Below, one piece after another: positions 9,444 through 42,027 of a stretch of 64,000 bases of DNA. A program made the translations under genes and the position numbers. Every line of letters starts with the position of its first letter. Positions within the stretch are counted from its first letter, which is position 1. Location of the stretch: positions 384,001 through 448,000 of the forward strand of contig CAWBOC010000009.1 in NCBI GenBank assembly GCA_963790305.1, read 5' to 3'. Under the pieces are notes generated by a model, which saw only the letters and a list, made by a program, of their open reading frames with translations, ran no database searches and was not told where the DNA came from. Source of the DNA: an uncultured Gemmatimonadaceae bacterium. GTDB lineage: Bacteria; Gemmatimonadota; Gemmatimonadetes; Gemmatimonadales; Gemmatimonadaceae.

Positions 9444-10265
9444 ATGAGTGCCCCTAATGCGCTGCAAGCGACGGCGCGCGACCTCGAGATGCTCCGTGAC
9501 GTCGCCGTTGCGGCGGCCAATGGTGCCGCGACCATCGTGCGTTCGCATCGCGGCGCCGGGGCCACCGTCGAGTGGCAGCCCAAGGGACGATCCGACTTCG
9601 TCAGCATCGTGGATACCGCCGCGGAAGAGCGCATTCGAGAAATCGTAGTGCGCGCGCTGCCCGACGCTCGCGTCATCGGCGAAGAGCTTACGCCCGAGGG
9701 TGCCGCCGGCTCCGGGATCACGTTCCTCGTCGACCCGCTCGACGGGACGACGAATTTCCTCCATGACTATCCGGAGTACGCCGTCTCGATCGCAGTCCTG
9801 GTCGATCGCGAAACGCTCGTCGGCACTGTCGTGAATGTGCCGAATCACTCCAGCTGGGTCGCCGTCGCGGGACAGGGCGCGACCGTCGACGGTCGCCCGA
9901 TTCGCGTGAGCGACATTCGCGAGCCCGCGCGCGCCCTGATCGGCACCGGCTTCCCCTTCAAGTACCCGGAGCAGATCGAACGATACGTGCGCGAGCTGCC
10001 GGTGATCATGCGGTCGACGGCGGGGATTCGCCGCGCCGGTGCAGCCGCGCTCGATCTCTGCGCCGTCGCCACCGGCCGCTTCAATGCGTTCTGGGAGCAC
10101 AGCCTCGAGGCGTGGGATTTCGCCGCCGGCGCGCTGCTCATTCGCGAGGCGGGCGGCGTCATCACTGACCTTCAGGGCGCGCCGCTCCCGCTTTCCCGAT
10201 CAGGAGCCCTGGCCGGGAATCCGTGGATGCACGAATGGATGCTCAAAGTTTTGAGTGATGTGTAG
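9444..10265 (+). CDS. Inositol monophosphatase family protein (SuhB-like)
   Basis: GEE, DPLDGTTNF, WDFAAG. Confidence 0.9.
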   Translation: MSAPNALQATARDLEMLRDVAVAAANGAATIVRSHRGAGATVEWQPKGRSDFVSIVDTAAEERIREIVVRALPDARVIGEELTPEGAAGSGITFLVDPLDGTTNFLHDYPEYAVSIAVLVDRETLVGTVVNVPNHSSWVAVAGQGATVDGRPIRVSDIREPARALIGTGFPFKYPEQIERYVRELPVIMRSTAGIRRAGAAALDLCAVATGRFNAFWEHSLEAWDFAAGALLIREAGGVITDLQGAPLPLSRSGALAGNPWMHEWMLKVLSDV

Positions 10266-28656: not shown

Positions 28657-29015
28657 ATCTATCGAAATCTCGCCGTAGCGGCTGTAGTCGCGTCCAGAAA
28701 ATTCATCCAGCAAAAATGCGGGTGGACCGTGACGCCCCTTGAGACAGGAGCCGGTATCCATCCGCTGCCGCCGGGTGCACTCGCCACTGTCGCGCGAATG
28801 GGGACCCAAGGGCGCGCCGAGCAAATGCTCGGCGATCAATTGTCCTGCGTCGCTTTTCGGGAGCGTCAGCGTCCTATGCGCCTTCGCCGGTTCGTCGAGT
28901 TGACGACGCCCCGATCGTTCCGAGGCTCCCCCGCGCCGTTCGCGGGCCCATAATTGCCGGCTCGCAGTTAGCCAGGCTAGTCACGAGCACCGCGACTGCC
29001 GGTGCACCGTAGCCT
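28657..29015 (-). promoter_or_regulatory. Long structured 5' leader of fusA (candidate cis-regulatory RNA/attenuator)
   Basis: About 360 nt without a convincing ORF. Long stem at 28718-28765 followed by ATTTTT on the minus strand; hairpin at 28815-28834. Confidence 0.45.
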
Positions 29016-29019
29016 GTGA

Positions 29020-29047
29020 AATGTATTGAAGTTGCGAGCGGTGTCAA
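29020..29047 (-). promoter_or_regulatory. Sigma70-like promoter for fusA-tuf-S10
   Basis: TTGACA-16 nt-TACATT on the minus strand. Confidence 0.6.
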
Positions 29048-29074
29048 CGGGACGAGTCACCGTTGATTCAGCGC

Positions 29075-30238
29075 TCACACGCGCACGAATGCGCGTGCGA
29101 AGCCCACCGATTCCGCCAGCCGGCGAGCGGCTGAGCGCGGGGCTGTCAGTCCGTCAGTCAGCCAGATCGACATCTCGGGATTCTGCCAGGGCCGAGCGTT
29201 TCCGTGGCCACTCCAGCGGGGGCGGAGCGCGGCCGACCAGATGAGCTCGCCAAGCCTTACCGAGGGACACGCCCGCCCTTCAGCGATCTGCCATGTGAAA
29301 TAGCGCTCGAGGCGATCGAGCACGAAGCCCGGCGTCGGGGGCTCCATCGCCCGAAGCGCCGCCGCCGGGACGTCGACCCCGGCCAGGCGATGCGCGAGGC
29401 GGAGCGTCCAATAGACACACGTGGTCGCCCGGGCCGCTCGTGCCCGGCTCTCGCAGAGGGCCCAGTCCACTCCGCCTCGCTCCGTCAGCGCGGCGACGTC
29501 GCGCAACGCGCGCCACGCTCCGCCGTTCATCATGTGAGACCACACCCAGTGCCCGCACAGATACACGAGATGGTCTTCAACTGAAGGGATGAGGATCCCT
29601 CGTCGGGCCCCGCGCACCGCGGTGCCGCGACTGGCCACCGCCTCGGCGTCGAGCACAAACGGATGCCTCGCGGGAAACAGACCGGTGTGAAGCTCGAGCA
29701 GGGCCCGCGTGCCGCGGGCGTCCCGCAGCGGCGGCAGGTGGTGGTGGGTCGAGAAGAATGGCGCGTATCGCACGTCGTGCTTCCACACCCAGCCTGATGA
29801 CGCCGCCGCGACGCGTGCAGCGTCGGTCTCCGCAGCGGGCACGAGGACATCGAGATCCAGCATCGGCCGGTCGACGATGGATTCGTAAACACTCCGCGCG
29901 AGGGCCGCACCCTTGAGCAAGACCGTGCGAATACCGGCCGCCTCGAACGCGGCAATGGTCTCGTCGAGACGCTCGTCCATGCGCTGCAGCTCGAACTCCT
30001 CGACCATCGCCAGGCGTCCCATGTCGCCCGCTGCCGATGGCAGGCGTCCGCCTAACGCGTCACGGACGCGGCGCGCCACAACGGGAACGGCGCGCGCTGC
30101 GACAGCCATACGCGTCACAAGACCCCACCGGACTGCACCGACGGCAATCCGGGCTATCTCGGCGTCGTTGCTGCGCGGACCGGCGCAGAGAAACACCAGC
30201 CGTGCTTCAGCGCCGATCGACGGCTCACGCATCAGCAT
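29075..30238 (-). CDS. Nucleotidyltransferase-family protein (NTP_transf_5-like), lasso cluster tailoring enzyme
   Basis: LLKGAALA..RPMLDLDVLV (DxD), LELH; last gene of the lasso operon. Confidence 0.8.
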   Translation of the reverse strand: MLMREPSIGAEARLVFLCAGPRSNDAEIARIAVGAVRWGLVTRMAVAARAVPVVARRVRDALGGRLPSAAGDMGRLAMVEEFELQRMDERLDETIAAFEAAGIRTVLLKGAALARSVYESIVDRPMLDLDVLVPAAETDAARVAAASSGWVWKHDVRYAPFFSTHHHLPPLRDARGTRALLELHTGLFPARHPFVLDAEAVASRGTAVRGARRGILIPSVEDHLVYLCGHWVWSHMMNGGAWRALRDVAALTERGGVDWALCESRARAARATTCVYWTLRLAHRLAGVDVPAAALRAMEPPTPGFVLDRLERYFTWQIAEGRACPSVRLGELIWSAALRPRWSGHGNARPWQNPEMSIWLTDGLTAPRSAARRLAESVGFARAFVRV

Positions 30239-30239
30239 G

Positions 30240-31040
30240 TCAGTAGTGCGCCAGGGTCCCGGCACGCCGGGCGTATCGCATGCCAATCACGAATGCTCCC
30301 GTTCCAATGGCCAACAGCACGACGGCCATCGCCGCGAGGGTCAGCACGTCCGGAAGCACTTCGCGGAAGGCGACGCCATCGAGCCACACCCGCCGAAGAG
30401 CACGCAACCCATAAGTCAGAGGGATGACCCCGGATAGCGACTGAATCCACGAGGGGATGACCGAGGTCGGATAGTAGACGCCTCCGAGCAGACCGGAGAG
30501 AAGCAACACGGCCTGCGGCAAGGGTCCCGTCGTCCGAAACGCGAGCACCATCGCCGCCGCCATCAAGCCAATGGCGAAGTACGCCGCGGTGATCAGCGCC
30601 AGAATCAGGAGCGCGAAGCCGCTATGACCCGCGCTCAGCCGAACGCCAAGGATCACGGCCATCACAATGGTGAGCGCGCCCCGCACCGCCGTCCAAGTGA
30701 ACGCGTATCCAACGAGCCCGGCGATCAACAATGCGAGGCGCGCGCGCGTGGAGAGCATTGCCTCGAGCGTGCCGGTCGCGATTCCCGACGCGACTGCTCC
30801 GGATACGGCGTTCACCGCCGTCGAGAGAAACGAGAACGCCAGCACCCCCACGACGAGAAAGCCAAAGTAATGTCCGCCTTCGTTGCTGATCCGCTCGGCA
30901 ATCACTGGCTGAAGCGCACCGGCGACGAAGTACATCGGGAGGATCGTGACGATCAGGCCACCAATCGACATCAGCATGCCGAGACGATAGCTCGTCGCGG
31001 TAAGCCAGCTGGCGCGCATGAGCGCGAGGGCTTCACGCAT
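30240..31040 (-). CDS. ABC-2-type transporter permease
   Basis: About 6 TM segments, GTLEAML, GGVYYP..IPSW..IPLTYG. Confidence 0.88.
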   Translation of the reverse strand: MREALALMRASWLTATSYRLGMLMSIGGLIVTILPMYFVAGALQPVIAERISNEGGHYFGFLVVGVLAFSFLSTAVNAVSGAVASGIATGTLEAMLSTRARLALLIAGLVGYAFTWTAVRGALTIVMAVILGVRLSAGHSGFALLILALITAAYFAIGLMAAAMVLAFRTTGPLPQAVLLLSGLLGGVYYPTSVIPSWIQSLSGVIPLTYGLRALRRVWLDGVAFREVLPDVLTLAAMAVVLLAIGTGAFVIGMRYARRAGTLAHY

Positions 31041-32091
31041 CCGAACCCTCCTTGCGACGCGCGACGATGCGGTCGAGAAGCTCGGCCAGCGTGAGTGGCG
31101 CGCGCTCGAAGCGCGCGACCCGTACACCCGCGCACGTCAACAGATCGAGCACGCGTGCGGCATCATCGAGGCCGCCTGGAACGTCAACGTCAATGCGGGT
31201 CCATCCGTCTTCCTGCACGCCACCGCTGACGTGCGCGATCACGCCCCGCTCACCGAGGGCGTGCCAGGCGGGGTGCTGAGCGTCTCGCGTCCACGCCCGG
31301 TACCGGGCATCCCCGACTTCGCGCGCGAGCTGCTCAACCGGCCCGGTCGCGAGCAGGCGACCGCGGTCCAGCACCGCCACCCGATCGCAAAGGCCGAACG
31401 CCTCCTCCGCACTGTGCGTCGCGAGCAGAACCGTGCATCCCTGACGTCCGACGAGCTCGTCGCGCAGAAAGACGCGCAACGCACGCGCCGAAATCGGGTC
31501 GAGACTTCGCGTGGGCTCATCGAGCAGAAGAACGCGCGGGCGCGCGAGCAAGGCGCGCGCAATGAGCAGCCGCTGCTTCATCCCTGACGAAAACGTGCCC
31601 ACCAGCTGAGTCGTCGTGGCATCCAATCCCACCAGACCGAGGAGCTCGCGCACCCGGACTGCGACCTCGGCACGAGGAACGCCGTGCAGCGCGGAGAACA
31701 GCCGGAGGTTCTCCGTCGCGGTCAAGCGCCAGTGGAGCGACCGCTCGTCGGCGATGACCGGCGCCAGCACACGCCGCGTGGTGGCCGGGCTGCGCACGAC
31801 GTCATGTCCGAGGACAGTCGCTCGCCCGGTATCCGGCAGGATGAGCGTCGACAGCACCTTGAAGAGCGTGGTCTTCCCAGCGCCGTTCGGCCCGAGCAGC
31901 CCGACGAACTCTCCTTCGTTGACCTCGAGATCGACGTTCGCGAGGGCGAGCCGGGTTTCGCGCGTCAGCGGAGCGCGCATCGCGACGCTCAACGGGCGGC
32001 GAACCGCGAATCGCTTGCTCAACCCGACGATCGAGATCGCACTCGCCGTCCGCGTGGCGCAGAGAACCGTGGGCGCGGCCACCAGGGTCAT
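31033..32091 (-). CDS. ABC transporter ATP-binding protein (exporter)
   Basis: GPNGAGKT, FSSGMKQR, LLLDEP, ATH; ATGA overlap with the kinase. Confidence 0.92.
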   Translation of the reverse strand: MTLVAAPTVLCATRTASAISIVGLSKRFAVRRPLSVAMRAPLTRETRLALANVDLEVNEGEFVGLLGPNGAGKTTLFKVLSTLILPDTGRATVLGHDVVRSPATTRRVLAPVIADERSLHWRLTATENLRLFSALHGVPRAEVAVRVRELLGLVGLDATTTQLVGTFSSGMKQRLLIARALLARPRVLLLDEPTRSLDPISARALRVFLRDELVGRQGCTVLLATHSAEEAFGLCDRVAVLDRGRLLATGPVEQLAREVGDARYRAWTRDAQHPAWHALGERGVIAHVSGGVQEDGWTRIDVDVPGGLDDAARVLDLLTCAGVRVARFERAPLTLAELLDRIVARRKEGSDA

Positions 32092-33035
32092 ACCGAGCCC
32101 GCTCCTACGCCGTCGGCATGCCACGCGAGCACATCGGCGACGACCTCATCCAGTCGCGTGAAATCACGAGAGACCTCGAGCAGTCGCACCGGGACGCGCC
32201 GCGCCAGCGCGACGACTCGGTCGAGCAGCGCCACCGCTTCGCAACCGGTGAGAAGAGGTGCGATCTTCGCGTGGCGAACGAGCGAGAGCGCCGAGGGCAC
32301 CGGTGGCAAGGCGCTTACGCGAGCCGCTGCGCCGCCGGGAAGCGCGGTCACCGGTGACAGCAAGTACAGCGCGGCGATCGGCACCGCCTCAGCCTGGAGC
32401 CGGTCGATCTCGAGCGCGTCAACGACCATCCGGTCGCCCGACGGGCGCGCCTCACGAGGGGCGGGCGGCAGCCGCGTCGCCGCATCGGAGCGAAGCCGAA
32501 GCTCGTGGACGCCCGGGAATGCGAGAGGCCCGCCGTCGAGCTGAACGCGGAGCGTGTCGTCGGTGAGAAGTCGCGCGCCGGCTCGCACGAGGGCCCACGC
32601 GAGCGTGGATTTTCCGAAGCCCTTCGAGCCGAGAAACGCGATCGCCTCGCGTTCGATCGCGACGGCACTGGCGTGAAAGCAGACGTCGCCAGCAGCGTGC
32701 ATTGCCGTCGCGAGGACTCGGCCCATGATGTCGACGCGCGCGGCGTCTTCGGACACGGTCGCCGGGGCGCGCCAGATGATGGCGCCGCCCGAGGCATCGA
32801 TGTCGAAGCGCCCCGTGTCGTCATACATGAGATGCCAACCGCGACTCGATCGATAGAGACGCGCACTGGCGCTCGCGTCGACCTGGTCGCTGCCGAGCGC
32901 CTCGGCATCCCGGGGCATGGGCTCCGGTGCGTGGCGGTGCAGCGTCCAGGTGGGGCGTGCGGCCGTCAGCGCCCGCAGCGATGGACACTCGAGCGCGGTG
33001 CGGAGCACCCCTCCGAAAATCGCGTAGTCGGTCAC
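32088..33035 (-). CDS. HPr-kinase-like lasso peptide kinase (start uncertain, 33035-33080)
   Basis: FHASAV, GSKGFGKST Walker A, LLTDD; directly after the precursors. Confidence 0.8.
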   Translation of the reverse strand: MTDYAIFGGVLRTALECPSLRALTAARPTWTLHRHAPEPMPRDAEALGSDQVDASASARLYRSSRGWHLMYDDTGRFDIDASGGAIIWRAPATVSEDAARVDIMGRVLATAMHAAGDVCFHASAVAIEREAIAFLGSKGFGKSTLAWALVRAGARLLTDDTLRVQLDGGPLAFPGVHELRLRSDAATRLPPAPREARPSGDRMVVDALEIDRLQAEAVPIAALYLLSPVTALPGGAAARVSALPPVPSALSLVRHAKIAPLLTGCEAVALLDRVVALARRVPVRLLEVSRDFTRLDEVVADVLAWHADGVGAGSV

Positions 33036-33045
33036 TGCGGCTGGT

Positions 33046-33080
33046 GTGGCTGGGAGGTCGACCAGACCCTCCCGAGCCAC
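33046..33080 (-). other. Stem-loop immediately 3' of precursor A2
   Basis: gtggct-gggagg ... cctccc-g-agccac. Confidence 0.6.
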
Positions 33081-33087
33081 GGGAGCA

Positions 33088-33255
33088 TTACGAGCGTGAT
33101 CCGCAGGAACCACTGGAAGGGTACCAGTTGTTCCCATCGGACGTTACGCCGGTATCCGTGCTCGTGACGGTGAAGCCATCACAAGACCCGGTCACCCCGG
33201 CCTGGGTCAGCTCCCGGAACGTCCCGAAGCGCTGAACCTTGGGTTTCTCGTACAC
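33088..33255 (-). CDS. Lasso peptide precursor A2 (55 aa from GTG; alternative ATG at 33270)
   Basis: Leader YEKPKVQRFGTFRELTQ (YxxP, GxxxxxT, Thr at -2); core AGVTGSCD...CGSRS. Confidence 0.88.
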   Translation of the reverse strand: MYEKPKVQRFGTFRELTQAGVTGSCDGFTVTSTDTGVTSDGNNWYPSSGSCGSRS

Positions 33256-33327
33256 AGCATCTCCCTGCATAAAAGGTGAGCCTCCTTCCTACGGGAACGA
33301 CACACACACCTGCACGAGCCTAACGAA

Positions 33328-33360
33328 CTGAGACAGCGAGCCCTGTCCTCACTGTCCCAG
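33328..33360 (-). other. 13-bp stem-loop 3' of precursor A1
   Basis: Minus strand CTGGGACAGTGAG/CTCGCTGTCTCAG pairs fully only with two G-U wobbles. Confidence 0.65.
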
Positions 33361-33366
33361 GGACCA

Positions 33367-33543
33367 CTACGAACGCCCGCTGTTGATGTCACCATCCCAC
33401 GGGCATTCAGGGCGATTCGGCGCCCCACAGATGTTGTCGCCGCCAATTCCGAAGACGACGAGACCATCGTTGTCGCGGTCCCAGCCCGCCCGGGTGAGCT
33501 CGCGGAACGTACCGAAGCGTTCCACCCTGGGCTTTTCGTACAT
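33367..33543 (-). CDS. Lasso peptide precursor A1 (58 aa; hidden in the tail of a spurious 391-aa ORF)
   Basis: AAGGAGG SD; MYEKPRVERFGTFRELTR|AGWDRDNDG...SGRS; leader nearly identical to A2. Confidence 0.9.
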   Translation of the reverse strand: MYEKPRVERFGTFRELTRAGWDRDNDGLVVFGIGGDNICGAPNRPECPWDGDINSGRS

Positions 33544-33632
33544 GAGCCCTCCTTGATGCACGGTCGCCGGGTTCGCCCCCCGGCCGGGAGCGGGCCACAC
33601 CGGCCCGCGTGTCCGATCGTCGAAATCGACTG

Positions 33633-35586
33633 TCACGAAAGAGCACCGGCGAATGCCTGCGAGGCGCGCATCGGGCCGCCGTTCGGCGATCCCCGCGACG
33701 CGTCGTGCGCCCGCGTCCAGAACTCCGTCTGCAGCGTGAGAAAGAGCGTCACGCCAAGGTTGCCGTCGCCGCTCGCCTTCCACTCCTCCCAACCGCGACG
33801 CAGCGCCGCCGGGTCGATGATCCCAAGCTCCGCGAGCCGGCTGTCGCGCACCGCCCTGTCGACGAGACCGGCGCCCGCGTCGCGGAATGCCCGGCTGAAC
33901 AGCCGGCCGGTCGTTCCAGTCCGAGTGCGGCGGGGAGCGAGGACGTCGTCGGGTATGATGCCCCGCATCGCCGCTCGAAGGACCCGCTTCGTTTCCCGCT
34001 GTGACGCGCGCTCCTCCCGCGGACGCTCGGCCGCGAACGCGATCACGCGAGGATCCATCAGCGGTGATCGCACTTCGACCCCTTCCTCGCGCGCGAGGGC
34101 GCTCACGCACGCGTAGACGCGCGGGAAATACGGCGCGGTCATGTAATACCGGCTCTCGACGGCCGCGAAGCTCTCGCCCCGCCGCCGACGTGGCGTGGTC
34201 CGGGCACGCTCCGCAAAAGCATTCCGGCGCGCGAACTCGGGGTTGATCCAGGCGGGAACGTCGCGCTCGAGATATGCGCGGAGTGCGCGGCCGCGTCGAA
34301 GGGTCGCCGCCGCGTTGAGCGCGAACGCGGGCAGCAGCGGCTGAATCGCCCAGCGGAACAGTGTGCGCGCATCGCGAACACCACGCGCGCGGCATTCCTG
34401 TGCCGCCGCGAAGAGCCGACCGCTGCGCACCAGATCGGCGAGGTAGACCAGCGAGACCTGGAAGAGCTGATCGCCACCATTGCCATGCAGTGCGACGTGG
34501 GAATCCACGGCGCGACTTCCTCTGGCGAGAGCACGGTTCCAATGCTCGAACACATGGGCAAAGGGCTCATCCCGGCTGGCCGCGCCCTCGCAGAGTTGAT
34601 CGAGCAAGGAGATCTCTGCACTGTCGATCCAGTGCGGCGTCGCCCCCCAACGCCCCGCGACGGATGTGATGAGCTCATCTTCGCGCCCCGGATCACCCAC
34701 CGGGTACGTGATCGAGACTGCGCGAACCCGATCGACGTCGCCGCGCGTGGCCGACATGGCGGCGCCGAAGACCGCCGGTGAATCCCACCCGCCGCTGAGC
34801 CACACACTCGTTGCGCCGCGCGGCGTCGAGCCGTTCCTGAACGGCGCGCGCGAGGAGGTCGCGCAGCGCCACTGCGCCATCCTCGAGGGTCAGCCGGCGG
34901 CCGCTCTCGAACGTCGGCGCTTCCCAGTGCCGGGCCAGCACCGGGCGTGCGTCACCGATGCAGGAGAGCGTATGGGCGGCGGGAATTCGTTCGATCGATG
35001 CCAGGCAGGTGCTCGTCTCGTCGAGGGCGAGTCCCGCAGCCACTTCGCCAAGGTGAGGGAGATTGAGGGCAGGCTCCGCGCCAGCGGCGACGAGCCCGGA
35101 AACCCCCGAGGCCAACAACAGGCCATCGCGCGTCTCGGTGTAGAAAAGCGGCCGCGTGGCGCCGAGGTCGCGCGCCGCGACCATCCGCCGCGCAACGGAG
35201 TCCCAGATGATGAACGCGAAGTCGCCCTCGAGACGACGGCCGCACTGATCGCCCCACGCGCGATACGCCGCAAGAATCACGTGCGCGGTGGTCGGCCCCG
35301 ACGGACGCGCGTCCCTCTGTCGCAGCGCACGAAGGAGATCGGTTCGATAGTACAATGCGGCATCGGCGACGACGACGATCCCGGCTTCGCTCGCGATCGC
35401 CAGCGTGCTCTCACGGCCAGGCATCGCCTCCCACGTGTCGGATGCGATCGCAAGCGTGGCGTCGCCACACGACACGACCCGCGAGAGCTCGGCGCCGCGC
35501 CGCGCCATCGCGCTGAGTGCACGACTGGCGAGCTCCTCGCAATGCGTGCTGCGAGCGCGGGTGATGACGGCGACGATGGCGCTCAT
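33633..35586 (-). CDS. Lasso cyclase (asparagine synthetase-like C protein); frameshift near 34825
   Basis: N-part LEGDFAFIIWD..AARDLG.RPLFY; C-part WLSGGWDS, GNGGDQLF, VRSPLMD; ATGA coupling to B2. Confidence 0.87.
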
Positions 35587-36035
35587 CGAGCTCCCACGAG
35601 GCGCACGTCGGCGAGAGGCTCGAATGAGGCAACATGCTCTGAGGAATCGGCGAGCACCTCCGCCCCGAGCTCGACCCATGCGTGCGCCTCGAATCGACCG
35701 GTTCGCTCCCGCACACCAATGCGAACGTGCCACCCGGGCACCTGCGCGCGCTCCAGCATCCGCGACAGCGCCAGCGAGCGAACGAGACAGTTGGGACGAA
35801 ACACGCCGCGGCGCGAGACGAGCGACACGGCGTTGGCCAGTTTTCGCGCCGTCACGCGTGCGAGCTCGTCAGGCGCGGCCGATGCCTCACGCTCCCGTCG
35901 CACGAGGCGACCCTGGGGACGGGTCCACACCGCGAGCTGCGCTCGCAGCAAGGCGAGCTGCGCGCGCAGGAGCTCGCGGCGCTCGGCCTCGCTAAGCGAG
36001 ACGAGTTTCGACAGTCGCGACGCGAGGCGGCGCAT
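35583..36035 (-). CDS. Lasso leader peptidase B2 (transglutaminase-like)
   Basis: NCLVRSLAL and IGV..FEAHAWVE catalytic Cys/His motifs. Confidence 0.9.
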   Translation of the reverse strand: MRRLASRLSKLVSLSEAERRELLRAQLALLRAQLAVWTRPQGRLVRREREASAAPDELARVTARKLANAVSLVSRRGVFRPNCLVRSLALSRMLERAQVPGWHVRIGVRERTGRFEAHAWVELGAEVLADSSEHVASFEPLADVRLVGAR

Positions 36036-36315
36036 GCCGGGCGGGCTCCGGAGCGGGGACGAGCAGACCGAACGATTGCAGCGAGCTCAGCAGCTCGATG
36101 ACATCGGCGCGGAGATCAGCCGGCGAAACCTCGGGGTGCCGTGCCGCGAGCGCGGCGCAGAGCGAGTCGAATGACATGTGCGCGGGAGGCAACATCTCCC
36201 AGACTTCCGCCGCAACGGCGTTGAGGCCGAAATACACCTCGTCCGTGAGCGAGAAGAGGACGGCGCCTTCCGACAACGTCCGATAGATGACTGCCTGGTT
36301 CCGAGTGGGCAGCAT
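35992..36315 (-). CDS. Lasso B1 / PqqD-family RiPP recognition element
   Basis: GAVLF..YFGLNAVAAEVWEML..DVIELLSSLQSFGLL. Confidence 0.88.
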   Translation of the reverse strand: MLPTRNQAVIYRTLSEGAVLFSLTDEVYFGLNAVAAEVWEMLPPAHMSFDSLCAALAARHPEVSPADLRADVIELLSSLQSFGLLVPAPEPARHAPPRVATVETRLA

Positions 36316-36640
36316 GCAGCAGCTCTCGTCGACACGATTGCTCGTGCCGTGGCCATTGGGCTCGCAGACGCGAGACAGGGATCGCGTTACGACATGTCCC
36401 GGTTAGCATCCGGGGCTGCAAGCAATGGCAGAGGCGATGCCATCCTCAAGGGATGGTCCCGGGACGTGCCCTCGTGGGCAACGTATTACGCCACAACGGC
36501 TTCCGATCTGAGGGCTCGAATGTGGATAACGTTCGCCGTGCGCGCGTTCCGCATCGTTTGTTGCGGTACTGCGACAGGTGGGCCGTTCCGCAAATGCGAA
36601 ATGATTTTTGCACGTCACCCTCATTAGCGTGCCCTAACGA

Positions 36641-36671
36641 AATAAAACGGCGCCTCAGAGAGGCGCCGTTT
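36641..36671 (-). terminator. Rho-independent terminator after rpsG
   Basis: Minus strand AAACGGCGCCTC-TCT-GAGGCGCCGTTT followed by TATTT. Confidence 0.8.
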
Positions 36672-36694
36672 CATAACGATTCGCTCGAAAGGGC

Positions 36695-37161
36695 TTACCA
36701 GCGATAGTGCGCGAACGCCTTGTTCGCTTCCGCCATGCGGTGCGTGTCTTCCTTCTTCTTCACCGCGTTGCCTTCACCCTTCGACGCCGCGATGATCTCG
36801 GCCGCGAGCTTCTCCGGCATCGACTTCTCACCGCGATCGCGCGAGTACGAGATGAGCCAGCGCATGGCGAGCGCCGTACGCCGCTCGGGCCGCACTTCGA
36901 CCGGAACCTGGTAGGTCGCGCCACCAACACGGCGGCTCTTCACTTCCACGACCGGCTTGAGGTTGGTCAGAGCCTGCTTGAAGACGTTGACGCCCGGTTG
37001 CCCAGTGCGGGATTCCACGAGGTCCATCGCGCCGTAGAAGATGCGCTCGCCGGTGGACTTCTTCCCCTGGTACATCAGGACGTTGATGAACTTCGAGACC
37101 GTCTGGCTGTCATAGCGCGCGTCGGCAAGGACGGGGCGCTTGATGGACTTTTGTCGGCGGC

Positions 37162-37165
<4 letters not shown>
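36695..37165 (-). CDS. rpsG: 30S ribosomal protein S7
   Basis: [25 protein letters not shown]. Confidence 0.98.
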
Positions 37166-37703: not shown

Positions 37704-40700
37704 CTATAGCTCCTCGTCGATCACGTGCGTCGCCGTTCCGAAGCCAGCGTCCGATAAACCAGGGACTGGAAGCGGGGCGAAGGGCTCCAGCGGTGCTGCC
37801 GGCACGAAGCCCTCCGGCGGCTCCGGCGCCTGGAGATCGATGTCGATCTCCGAATACCGATACTGACCGGTACCCGCCGGGATGAGGTGGCCGATGATGA
37901 TGTTCTCCTTGAGCCCAAGGAGATCGTCCTTGGCCCCGCGGATCGCCGCATCGGTGAGCACGCGAGTGGTCTCCTGGAACGACGCCGCCGAAATGAACGA
38001 CTGCGTCGTGAGGCTCGCCTTGGTGATACCCAGGAGCAACGGCTCCGAGGTGCCGGGCTTGAGCCCCTTCTTCTGGGCGCGGTCGTTGATCTCGCGGAAC
38101 GAGCCCTTGTCCACATGCTCGGCCTCGAGGAACTCCGTCTCCCCGGGATCCATGATGCGCACCTTCTGAAGCATCTGCCTGACGATCACGCCAATGTGCT
38201 TGTCGTTGATCTTCACGCCCTGCAGGCGATACACCTCCTGCACCTCGTTCAGCAGATACTCCTGCACCGCACGGGGTCCCTTGATCCGCAAAATGTCGTG
38301 CGGATTCACGGGTCCCTCCGACAGGCGGTCACCGGCGCGCACGCGATCGCCCTCGTGCACGCGAAGGTGCTTGCCTGCCGGAACCTCGTACAGCTGCGCT
38401 TCCTGCGACTCGTCCGCGACCTGATAGCCATCTGGGCCGTCACGCGTCGGCTGGACGAAGACCTCGCGCTTGCCACGCTTGATCTCCCCGAACCGCACCG
38501 TGCCGTCGACTTCCGAGATCGTCGCCGGATCCTTCGGCCGGCGCGCCTCGAACAGTTCTGCGACGCGCGGCAGACCACCGGTGATGTCACGCGTCTTGTA
38601 CGCCTCGCGGCCGATCTTGGCGAGAATGGTTCCCGCCCCGATCTTCTCACCATCGTCCACCGTCAGCTGCGCGCCGACCGGGATGACGAAGTCACGCAGA
38701 CGCTTCTCCTTTCCACCCTTCTCCTGCACGATCTCGATGTGAGGGTGCAGCCGCTTCTCGCGATCTTCGATGATCACCCGCTGCCGCAGGCCGGTGAGCT
38801 CGTCGAGCTCCTCGGTCACCGACTCATCCTCGACGATATCGACGAAGCGGACCGTGCCTTCGACGTCGGCGATGATGGGATTCGTGTACGGATCCCAGGT
38901 GAAGATCACCGTGTCCTTCTTCACGTCCTCGCCATCGGCGACCATCAGGAGTGCACCCAGCGGTACCGCGAAGCGCGACGCCACCGGCGCGTTCTTCTCC
39001 GCTGAGCCACGGATGATGATCTCACCCTCGTACGACGTCACGATCCGCTGCCCGTCGGAATTCTCGACGTGCACCAGCCGCTCCCCGTACTCGACGACCC
39101 CTGCCACCTTCGACTTGCGCGCCGTTTGCTCGGCGATACGCGCCGCCGTTCCACCGATGTGGAAGGTTCGGAGCGTGAGCTGCGTCCCTGGCTCGCCGAT
39201 CGACTGCGCGGCGAGAATACCGACCGCCTCGCCGAGATCCACCATGAACATCGTGGCCAGGTTTCGCCCGTAGCACATTCTGGCAGAGCCCGCGCTTGGC
39301 CTCGCAGGTGAGCACCGAGCGGATCTTCACCGTCTCGAGCCCCGAGTCCTCGATCGCGCGCGCCGTTTCCTCATCGATGAGCAGTCCCGCCTCCACGAGC
39401 AGCTTGGGGCGACCCGACTCATCGCGCTCATGCGGATCCTCGACATCCTCGGCCGCCACGTTGCCGACGATACGCTCGGCGAGCGGCTCGATGATGTCTT
39501 CGCCTTCCTTCAGCGCGCCGACCTCCAGTCCGAGGATCGTGCCGCAATCCTCTTCGGTGATCGTCACGTCCTGCGCGACGTCGACGAGACGACGCGTGAG
39601 GTAGCCGGCATCCGCGGTCTTGAGTGCGGTGTCGGCCAGACCCTTACGAGCGCCGTGCGTCGAGATGAAGTACTCGAGCACCGAGAGTCCTTCCCGGAAA
39701 TTCGACTTGATCGGGCTCTCGATGATCTCGCCAATGCCGCCGGTGAGCTTCTTCTGCGGCTTCGCCATGAGACCGCGCATACCCGCCAGCTGACGGATCT
39801 GATCGCGGCTGCCGCGCGAGCCGGAATCGAACATCATGAACACCGGGTTGAGCCCGCTCTTCGACTTCGACATCGCCTTCACCATGGCGTCGGCAATGTC
39901 GTTGTTCGCGTGCGTCCAGGTGTCGATCACCTTGTTGTAGCGCTCGCCGTTCGTGATGTTGCCCGTCTGATACGCGCGCTGGAAGCGCTCGACGCGCGCC
40001 TCCGCCTCCTCGAGCAGCGTCTCCTTCTCGCCGGGAATCTCGAGGTCTTCAACGCCGATGGAGACACCACCCATCGTCGCGTAGCGGAACCCGAACTCCT
40101 TGAGGCGATCGAGGAACGCGACCGTTCCCGAGAGCCCCGAGCGCCGATAGGCCTCGAACACGAGCTCCGAGAGTGCCTTTTTCTTCATCTCGCGGTTCTG
40201 GAACGGCATGACGTCGGGGATGATGCTGTTGAACAGCACGCGTCCCGCCGTCGTACGCTCCCACCGCGCGGGGCCACCCGGTTCACGAACCAGAAACTGG
40301 ACTGGCGTGTGATAGGTGAGCCGGCCCACCGCGAGTGCCGCCTCGATCTCCGCGAGCTCCGTGTAGCGTGGCGCATCGGTGACCTTCGTCGGATCGACCG
40401 GAGCGCGCGTGAGGAAGTAGCAGCCGAGGACAATGTCCTGGCTGGGCTCCGCCACCGGACGTCCATCCGACGGCTTGAGGATGTTGTTCGACGACAGCAT
40501 CAGCAGGCGCGACTCGAGCTGCGCCTCGAACGACAGCGGCACGTGCACCGCCATCTGGTCGCCGTCGAAGTCCGCGTTGAACGCCGCGCAGACGAGCGGG
40601 TGGATGCGGATGGCCTTCCCCTCGACGAGCACAGGCTCGAACGCCTGGATGCCTAACCGGTGCAGCGTCGGCGCGCGATTCAACAGAACGGGATGATCCT

Positions 40701-42027
40701 TGATGATCTCTTCGAGGATCTCGTACACCTCCGGGCTCTCGCGCTCGACGATCTTCTTCGCGCGCTTGACCGTTTCGGCGATCCCCTTCTCCACCAGCTT
40801 GTGGATGATGAACGGCTTGAACAGCTCGAGCGCCATCGCCTTCGGAAGTCCGCACTGGTGCAGGCGGAGCTCCGGGCCCACGACGATGACCGAACGTCCC
40901 GAGTAGTCCACGCGCTTGCCGAGCAGGTTCTGACGGAACCGGCCCTGCTTGCCCTTGAGCATGTCGCTGAGCGACTTGAGCGGCCGCTTGCCGCGACCGC
41001 GAATCGCCTTGGAGCGACGGCCGTTGTCGAACAGCGCGTCGACGGCCTCCTGCAGCATGCGCTTCTCGTTCCGGAGAATGACTTCCGGCGCGCGATGCAT
41101 GATCAGCTTCTGCAGTCGGTTGTTGCGGTTGATGACACGGCGGTACAGGTCGTTCAGGTCCGACGTCGCGAAGCGGCCGCCATCGAGCGGCACGAGCGGA
41201 CGCAGGTCGGGCGGAATCACTGGAATGACGTCCAGGATCATCCACTCCGGCTTGTTGCGCGTGTCGCCCGACTCACCCGAGTTGCGGAACGCGTCGACGA
41301 TCTTGAGCCGCTTGAGCATCTGCTTCTTCCGATGCTGCGACGTCTCCGTCTGCACGTCCTCGCGGAGCTGGTCGGAGACCTTGTCCACGTCGAGGCGGCG
41401 AAGCAGCTCGCGCACCGCCGGCGCTCCAATGTCCGCCTTGAAGGCGTCGTCGTTCGCCTCACGCGCCTTGGCGCGGAGGTCGAGGTACTCGTCCTCGTCG
41501 AGCAGCTGCAGCGGACGCACTTCCTGCTCGCCCGGCTCGATGACGACGTAGTTCGAGTAGTAGATGACCTTCTCGAGATCACGGAGGGTGAGATCGAGGA
41601 GGTTGCCCATCGGGCTGGGCAGGGTCTTGAAGAACCAGATGTGCGCCACGGGCACCGCGAGCTCGATGTGACCCATGCGCTCGCGACGCACCTTGGACAG
41701 CGTCACCTCGACACCGCAGCGGTCGCAAATCACCCCGCGGTAGCGGATGCGCTTGTACTTCCCGCAATGGCACTCCCAGTCCTTGACCGGACCGAAGATG
41801 CGCTCGCAGAAGAGGCCGTCCTTTTCGGGCTTGAACGAGCGGTAGTTGATGGTCTCGGGCTTGGTGACCTCGCCCCACGACCACCAGTTCCGCCCGCCGC
41901 CCATTTCGATCCGCTCACGCTCCTTGGGATCCTTGGGACCACGGATCTCCTCGGGCGACGCAATGCGAATCTGGATGAAATCGAAGTTCGAGCTGCGCGG
42001 CTCGCGCGCGCTACGGAAGTCAATCAT
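37704..42027 (-). CDS. rpoC: RNA polymerase beta' subunit; frameshift near 39280
   Basis: NADFDGD, zinc-binding motifs, [10 protein letters not shown]. The two ORFs join as [13 protein letters not shown] after removing one base. Confidence 0.97.

Follow-up and report, generated by a model that had tools for sequence, protein, structure and literature searches.

A conserved lasso peptide precursor gene with a predicted 40-residue core between rpsG and fusA of an uncultured Gemmatimonadaceae bacterium

A lasso peptide cluster between rpsG and fusA

The window analysed here is a stretch of 64,000 nt from an uncultured Gemmatimonadaceae bacterium (CAWBOC010000009.1, positions 384,001-448,000; assembly GCA_963790305.1). 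A lasso peptide cluster occupies positions 29075-36315, between rpsG (36695-37165) and fusA (26560 to ~28656), and is oriented like rpoB-rpoC-rpsL-rpsG and fusA-tuf. The genes B1, B2, C, A1, A2, K, the two ABC exporter genes and NT all lie on the minus strand. The features, in the direction of reading, are the following.

35992-36315, minus strand: B1, PqqD-like RRE (PF05402, 1.6e-13; NF033530, 32.1 bits, below the cut-off of 70)
35583-36035, minus strand: B2, transglutaminase-like leader peptidase (PF13471, 3.8e-19; NF033537 lasso_biosyn_B2, 74.1 bits, cut-off 33)
33633-35586, minus strand: cyclase C, asparagine-synthetase-like (PF13537, PF00733; NF033535 on both halves)
33566-33608, minus strand: two GC-rich inverted repeats, located between the cyclase stop and the A1 Shine-Dalgarno site (seven-locus alignment)
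33548-33554, minus strand: A1 Shine-Dalgarno site AAGGAGG, 4 nt ahead of the ATG (direct reading)
33367-33543, minus strand: A1 ORF, ATG to TAG, encoding a 58-aa peptide (P0001; translation)
33490-33543, minus strand: predicted A1 leader, 18 aa (MYEKPRVERFGTFRELTR), with a Y-x-x-P motif and Thr at -2 (NF033521 and alignment A1)
33370-33489, minus strand: predicted A1 core, 40 aa, with Ala1, Gly2, Asp8-Gly9, Cys21, Cys29, Pro30-Trp31 and Arg39-Ser40 (translation, conservation)
33367-33369, minus strand: A1 stop codon TAG (direct reading and translation)
33330-33358, minus strand: conserved RNA hairpin directly downstream of the A1 stop, an 11-bp stem capped by a conserved 7-nt loop (N-ACAGGG) (covariation, folding)
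33088-33255, minus strand: A2, second precursor (NF033521, 27.5 bits)
32088-33080, minus strand: K, HprK-like P-loop kinase (PF07475 and TIGR04352, below cut-off; fold)
31033-32124, minus strand: ABC exporter ATPase (PF00005, 2.6e-30)
30240-31127, minus strand: ABC-2 permease (PF01061, 1.8e-17)
29075-30286, minus strand: nucleotidyltransferase NT, NTP_transf_5 (PF14907, 1.6e-35, 123.3 bits, cut-off 31.2)

The second precursor, A2, lies 100 nt downstream of A1. It probably starts at the GTG at 33255 rather than at the ATG at 33270, since the upstream ATG is not conserved and an in-frame TAG is found there in the same-genus locus L005. Its 37-aa core has Cys7 within a predicted Ala1-Asp8 ring and Cys33 near the end. 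This pairing of a ring Cys with a distal one suggests that A2 may be class III-like, so that one cluster may yield two disulfide classes. The order A1-A2 within B1-B2-C-...-K-ABC-ABC-NT is the same in the five closest loci (L034-L038).

Two conserved elements flank the A1 gene. In the hairpin at 33330-33358, 98.5% of cells are paired and 5 of the 11 pairs have compensatory changes; the covariation score, computed on 6 distinct rows, was reached by none of 500 shuffles. The folding z-score is -3.25, with none of 200 shuffles equally stable. The hairpin has no T-run, and an Rfam search of the conserved hairpins found no family. Stem-loops are common beside RiPP precursor genes. The one below A1 may stabilise the 3' end or terminate transcription in part, favouring precursor mRNA over that of the downstream genes. 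The GC-rich repeats at 33566-33608 are strongly conserved in sequence, and their folding energy is no better than that of shuffles (z 0.20), so that a folded structure there is putative. Past the A2 stop, at ~33050-33085, lies a further conserved inverted repeat (z -1.99).

A scan for sigma-70-like promoters, whose consensus may differ from that of the phylum, found none before B1 or A1. The sole match in 28700-36800 (8.1 kb) is TTGACA-16-TACATT at 29020-29047 on the minus strand (10/12), in the 418-nt gap between NT and fusA. As it falls in this gap, fusA-tuf may have a promoter of its own behind the insertion.

The location recurs in relatives. Among 32 related cluster-bearing loci, 20 have rpsL/rpsG upstream and/or fusA downstream, 12 of these on both sides. 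The other 12 are mostly short contigs; in L047, L055, L082 and L084 there is enough sequence to reveal that the cluster lies elsewhere. The GC content of the cluster is 0.65-0.70 versus 0.62-0.65 in the flanks. Some relatives carry 1.3-6.4 kb of extra genes between rpsG and B1. In the window, the 380-nt rpsG-B1 gap holds a putative gene, a 73-aa ORF at 36403-36624 (minus strand) with no Pfam or NCBIfam match.

As assembled, the cyclase gene is split into two frames by one extra base in a GC run at ~34813-34825 and stops at residue 298, a frameshift on which the first-pass annotation was silent. With such a gene the strain would be unable to make the ring. Read literally, the cluster would be dead in the source strain, the cyclase a pseudogene and the A1 product, if made at all, left unmatured. 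We consider this very unlikely. The base is absent from 5/5 orthologues and its removal gives a single 650-aa ORF; related loci with both cyclase halves have them in one frame in all cases except L084, whose second half is itself split. Over 34723-35005, a 283-nt contig from sequencing run X1 differs from the window in nothing but the omitted base 34818 (one contig, depth 3.3 of 6.3). A frame break at 39270-39282 (minus strand) likewise divides the essential rpoC gene into two overlapping ORFs (39022-42027 and 37704-39278), and a contig from run X3 omits base 39281 there (one contig, depth 2.2 of 15.3). A1 itself is without sign of decay. These contigs are short and of low depth, the best share of sampled words being 0.24 and below half in every run; another deletion, seen at 35162 in a single contig, is not mirrored in the reading frame and was set aside. 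Because five of five orthologues and the X1 contig lack the base and rpoC is also broken, the extra base in the cyclase is probably an assembly indel error. The rpoC break is probably one too, and calls for caution with every gene call in the window.

The A1 gene and its predicted ring

In the mechanical ORF list, A1 is visible solely as the end of a 391-aa TTG ORF (33367-34542) that overlaps the cyclase gene in another frame. It has no entry of its own because the frame upstream is stop-free for 1.1 kb. The first-pass annotation had described a hidden lasso precursor behind a strong AAGGAGG Shine-Dalgarno site, and the description is accurate on each point. The ORF is buried in the longer open frame, the GGAGGG of the Shine-Dalgarno site is kept in 7/7 aligned orthologous loci, the peptide passes the curated leader model NF033521 (lasso_leader_L3, 28.3 bits, cut-off 19), the full enzyme set adjoins it and its orthologues are conserved. 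A Pfam search of A1 gave no match, and phmmer found none at E <= 10 among all PDB chains of at least 20 residues. Across the genome, the NF033521 cut-off is exceeded only at the A1 and A2 places. A third, weak leader-like match of 17.5 bits, below the cut-off of 19, is found at G000:C10:411380-411430 on the minus strand (locus L003).

High-GC DNA carries a large load of long spurious ORFs; 14 kb here contain 144 ORFs of at least 30 aa. A search of sequencing runs listed no RNA run with this sequence. That A1 is an untranslated chance frame has a probability close to nil. The leader model and the conserved Shine-Dalgarno site argue against it, as do the substitutions: in 6/6 pairwise comparisons of the window with orthologous loci (L005, of the same genus, and the Gemmatimonadaceae MAG loci L034-L038), synonymous changes predominate, with a pN/pS of 0.03-0.23. 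By this measure, the A1 orthologues are under purifying selection. In a search of 5.8 billion proteins, 13 homologues reached E <= 0.01, with identities of 81-97% in nine, and the library contains 277 representative clusters at E <= 0.001 (50% identity), hence a family of at least 277 clusters. To the extent that sequence evidence allows, the chance frame is already refuted. A 221-nt contig from the independent soil run X3 covers 33372-33592 with 0 differences. We regard A1 as confirmed, at the level of sequence, as a genuine conserved lasso precursor gene.

The peptide combines a leader with Y-x-x-P and Thr(-2), an Asp at core position 8 and adjacent B1, B2 and C genes, as looked for in a lasso precursor. 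In the 15-row alignment A1, the invariant leader residues are Y2, K4, P5, V7, R9, G11, F13, R14, E15, L16 and T17; in the core, Gly2, Asp8-Gly9 and the last two residues, Arg-Ser, are invariant. With T17 at -2, the core is 40 aa long and contains Asp8, Cys21 and Cys29, in agreement with the first-pass annotation.

Lasso peptides are known to close their ring at core position 7, 8 or 9. Asp8 is the sole acidic residue (Asp or Glu) at positions 7-9 of A1, and two wider sets support its role. The first consists of 79 distinct cores from loci of the phylum, with one 3-aa core and two cores cut by contig ends set aside. The second comprises 141 library representatives, kept from the best 148 of 277 because they are short and carry the leader motif; the other 7 were excluded. 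Asp8 is retained in 73/79 and 122/141 cores, respectively, and Gly2 in 78/79 and 137/141. The Ala1-Asp8 macrolactam proposed earlier is therefore well supported by conservation.

Cysteine pair, terminal serine and core length

A1 contains exactly one Cys pair, with both residues outside the predicted macrolactam ring, the pattern expected in the sequence of a class IV lasso peptide. Cys makes up 2 of the 40 core residues, whereas the share over 11 ordinary genes of the window is 30/4810 (0.6%). All 16 A1-type sequences (the window, P0003-P0011, L005 and L034-L038, which are not all independent) have both Cys, separated by seven residues (six in P0011) and followed by Pro-Trp. Among the A1 orthologues the resulting C-x7-C-P-W block at positions 21-31 is invariant. 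Across the 79 cores from loci, 43 have two Cys, 33 have three, 3 have none and 0 have one; the last two Cys are separated by 6-7 residues in 43/76 cores. The library representatives have two Cys in 96 of 141 cases, one in 10 and none in 26, so that a disulfide is not obligatory family-wide. For A1, a Cys21-Cys29 disulfide is the natural reading and a likely one.

The first-pass annotation read the pair as a class IV-like disulfide, for which both Cys would have to sit in the tail below the ring. The threading point, however, is fixed by nothing in the sequence, and the two Cys may instead lie in the loop above the ring, or be reduced or metal-bound. The peptide would then be not class IV, but an undescribed loop-loop disulfide type or class II with free thiols. 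Possible plugs flank the Cys pair on both sides: Phe13 stands before it and Trp31, invariant among the A1 orthologues, after it. Position 13 varies between F, W and L, and the three-Cys sister group has a Cys there. Loops of up to 20 aa (achromonodin-1) have been characterised, according to the sections of the review drawn on here (PMC13352647), and a loop extending to Cys29 would be near this precedent. The same sections describe all characterised lasso peptides with two Cys outside the ring as tail-tail, class IV. A small closed loop, on either side of the ring, would suit the conserved spacing of the last two Cys. Overall, we hold a reading in which the pair lies in the loop, stays reduced or binds metal to be less likely than not, though of some weight.

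The downstream kinase gene K may start at either of two GTG codons, at 33080 or 33035. K scores below the curated cut-offs of the HprK families (PF07475, 21.9 bits, cut-off 33.3; TIGR04352, 33 bits, cut-off 200), and a sequence search against PDB chains gave weak HPr kinase matches only (E 0.07) and no solved lasso kinase. Because the sequence matches were weak, K was folded from a 23-row alignment of relatives. The AF2 model has a pLDDT of 93.3 and, in Foldseek, matches PEPCK (E 1e-7) and the HprK/P kinase domain 1kkm_B (E 6.3e-7, TM 0.54-0.64 on the target) with a probability of 1.00. As modelled, K is a P-loop kinase of the HprK/PEPCK fold; orthology to the proven lasso tail kinases is putative. 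For NT, a sequence search against PDB chains returned nothing relevant.

HprK homologues transfer phosphate to the Ser that ends linear lasso precursors, and the pseudomycoidin nucleotidyltransferase adds one or two hexoses to phospho-Ser, as described in the portions of the source used here (PMC8498205). The A1 core ends in Ser40 and the cluster holds a nucleotidyltransferase gene, as in kinase-tailored lasso peptides. Since the invariant Arg-Ser end adjoins an HprK-like kinase gene and a PF14907 gene, a combination on which the first-pass annotation was also silent, we predict that Ser40 is phosphorylated and possibly glycosylated. A terminal Ser is found in 107/141 library representatives. 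Only 19/34 kinase-linked precursors from the fetched loci end in Ser, so this is no strict family rule; from the sequences, it holds for the A1/A2 subfamily (L034-L038), not for the whole family.

The earlier statement that a 40-aa core is exceptional stands against characterised peptides and falls within the family. The largest characterised lasso peptides are pandonodin, with 33 aa, and achromonodin-1, with 30 aa, in the size records given by the 2026 review (PMC13352647, consulted in part). Core lengths range over 17-44 aa in the 79 cores from loci (median 37, above 33 aa in 54/79) and over 17-56 aa in the 141 library representatives (median 36, above 33 aa in 83/141). A1 is thus larger than any characterised lasso peptide and of ordinary size in its large, uncharacterised soil-bacterial family. 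A literature search for papers naming a largest or longest lasso peptide found none.

The encoded length may differ from that of the product. Carboxypeptidases often trim lasso tails as far as the residue beneath the lower plug, a point made in the consulted part of the review (PMC13352647). A1 could be genuine and its mature product far shorter than 40 aa through tail trimming after maturation, in which case the giant size would be a property of the precursor only. The most variable stretch of A1, core residues 32-38, would suit such trimming, and in a sister subfamily what follows a conserved G-S-P-V-S is variable (IG, IT, ST, VS or nothing), as if dispensable. We nonetheless consider it unlikely. 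The C-terminal Arg-Ser is invariant in 15/15 rows of alignment A1, the RS end is present in 10/10 A1 and A2 copies of L034-L038, and the C-x7-C-P-W block is unchanged among the orthologues. By analogy with paeninodin, kinase action on the C-terminal Ser would require the full length until that point. If the kinase does act on this Ser, the full-length peptide would persist at least to phosphorylation.

Within the phylum, a family member is present in 55/401 sampled genomes, a tally that includes G000 and the unpublished G157, the latter contributing to this count alone. Relatives come from Gemmatimonadaceae, Gemmatimonadales and Gemmatimonadota, with two from Longimicrobiaceae. Literature searches found no characterised product for the A1 family and, for Gemmatimonadota, lasso cluster counts only; going by these searches, the A1 product would be the first from the phylum.

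Some family members are found in other settings. Three-Cys precursors of the sister type stand alone, with lasso enzymes absent from the fetched flanks (L040, L041, L043, L049, L056-L058, L062, L064, L067, L069, L071 and L072; match near 10001 in most), and the majority of them are without a terminal Ser. The neighbours of L049 are a DcuC carrier, an M28 peptidase and an OmpA-family protein, and a single MAG has both this orphan precursor and a str-operon cluster (L051). The library representative P0016 (235 aa) has an A1-like start, loses the frame after core residue 11 and has an A2-like leader later, which suggests a frameshift or a wrong gene call in the A1-A2 region of another assembly.

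Proposed maturation and comparison with known lasso peptides

From the known pathway we infer each chemical step, as well as where the chain threads and how long the finished A1 product is. The PqqD-like B1 would bind the Y-x-x-P leader of A1, and B2 would cleave after Thr(-2)-Arg(-1). The cyclase would then activate the Asp8 side chain and couple it to the Ala1 amine, giving a ring of 8 residues that encircles the other 32. A disulfide between Cys21 and Cys29 probably closes a 9-residue loop (C-x7-C), which would be too bulky to slip through this ring. The Ser40 hydroxyl of the linear precursor is the probable target of the HprK-like kinase, and the PF14907 nucleotidyltransferase may add a sugar to the phosphate afterwards. 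The ABC-2 pump would export the product. That A1 is translated and processed along this route is, in our judgement, probable.

A wider reading takes in the genomic location. A1 may belong to a large, experimentally unstudied family of giant lasso peptides with a disulfide-closed sub-loop and a phospho(glyco)sylated C-terminal Ser. In Gemmatimonadaceae, its gene cluster may have entered the str operon by an old insertion, inherited vertically since, and its product may be linked to translation or growth. If so, the layout rpsL-rpsG-[cluster]-fusA-tuf would couple its expression to the translation apparatus, and the product would act on, or report, the translation or growth state rather than serve as an occasional antibiotic. 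We offer this whole picture as a conjecture with little chance of being right in full. A literature search found no paper tying lasso clusters to the str operon, a weak test given the noise from Fusarium and fusilassin FusA. The rpsG-fusA location is unusual for a secondary-metabolite cluster and makes a link between RiPPs and a translation operon directly testable.

With typical cores of 36-41 residues, the A1 family would extend threading by a lasso cyclase to larger peptides. It combines a conserved Cys pair with a tail kinase and a nucleotidyltransferase, and its long, partly variable tail may offer a grafting scaffold.

Several characterised systems share parts of this arrangement. Achromonodin-1 is a class II peptide of 30 aa with a 20-aa loop, as given in the relevant part of the review (PMC13352647); compared with A1 it is shorter and has no Cys and no tailoring kinase. 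Because it shows that very long loops are possible, a Cys pair in the loop of A1 stays viable. Pandonodin, described there as class IV with the longest known tail (18 aa) and as the largest characterised lasso peptide at 33 aa (PMC13352647), resembles A1 in its long segment past the ring and its one Cys pair outside the ring. The A1 core is 7 aa longer, at 40 residues, belongs to Gemmatimonadaceae rather than Proteobacteria and is accompanied by kinase and nucleotidyltransferase genes. A tail placement of the Cys pair, as in the class IV peptide pandonodin, is a possibility for A1.

Paeninodin and the proteobacterial polyphosphorylated lasso peptides, like A1, have an HprK-like kinase gene beside Ser-ending precursors. 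In contrast to the paeninodin type, the kinase of the A1 cluster scores below the HprK cut-offs, although the fold agrees; the A1 and A2 cores are far longer and Cys-bearing, the ABC-2 exporter is encoded by two genes and the phylum is different. Pseudomycoidin, the phosphoglycosylated peptide of Bacillus pseudomycoides, shares the presence of both kinase and nucleotidyltransferase genes with the A1 cluster, and its nucleotidyltransferase is presumably a PF14907 member like NT. The two peptides differ in size, Cys pair and taxon, and are likened here by gene content, not by sequence.
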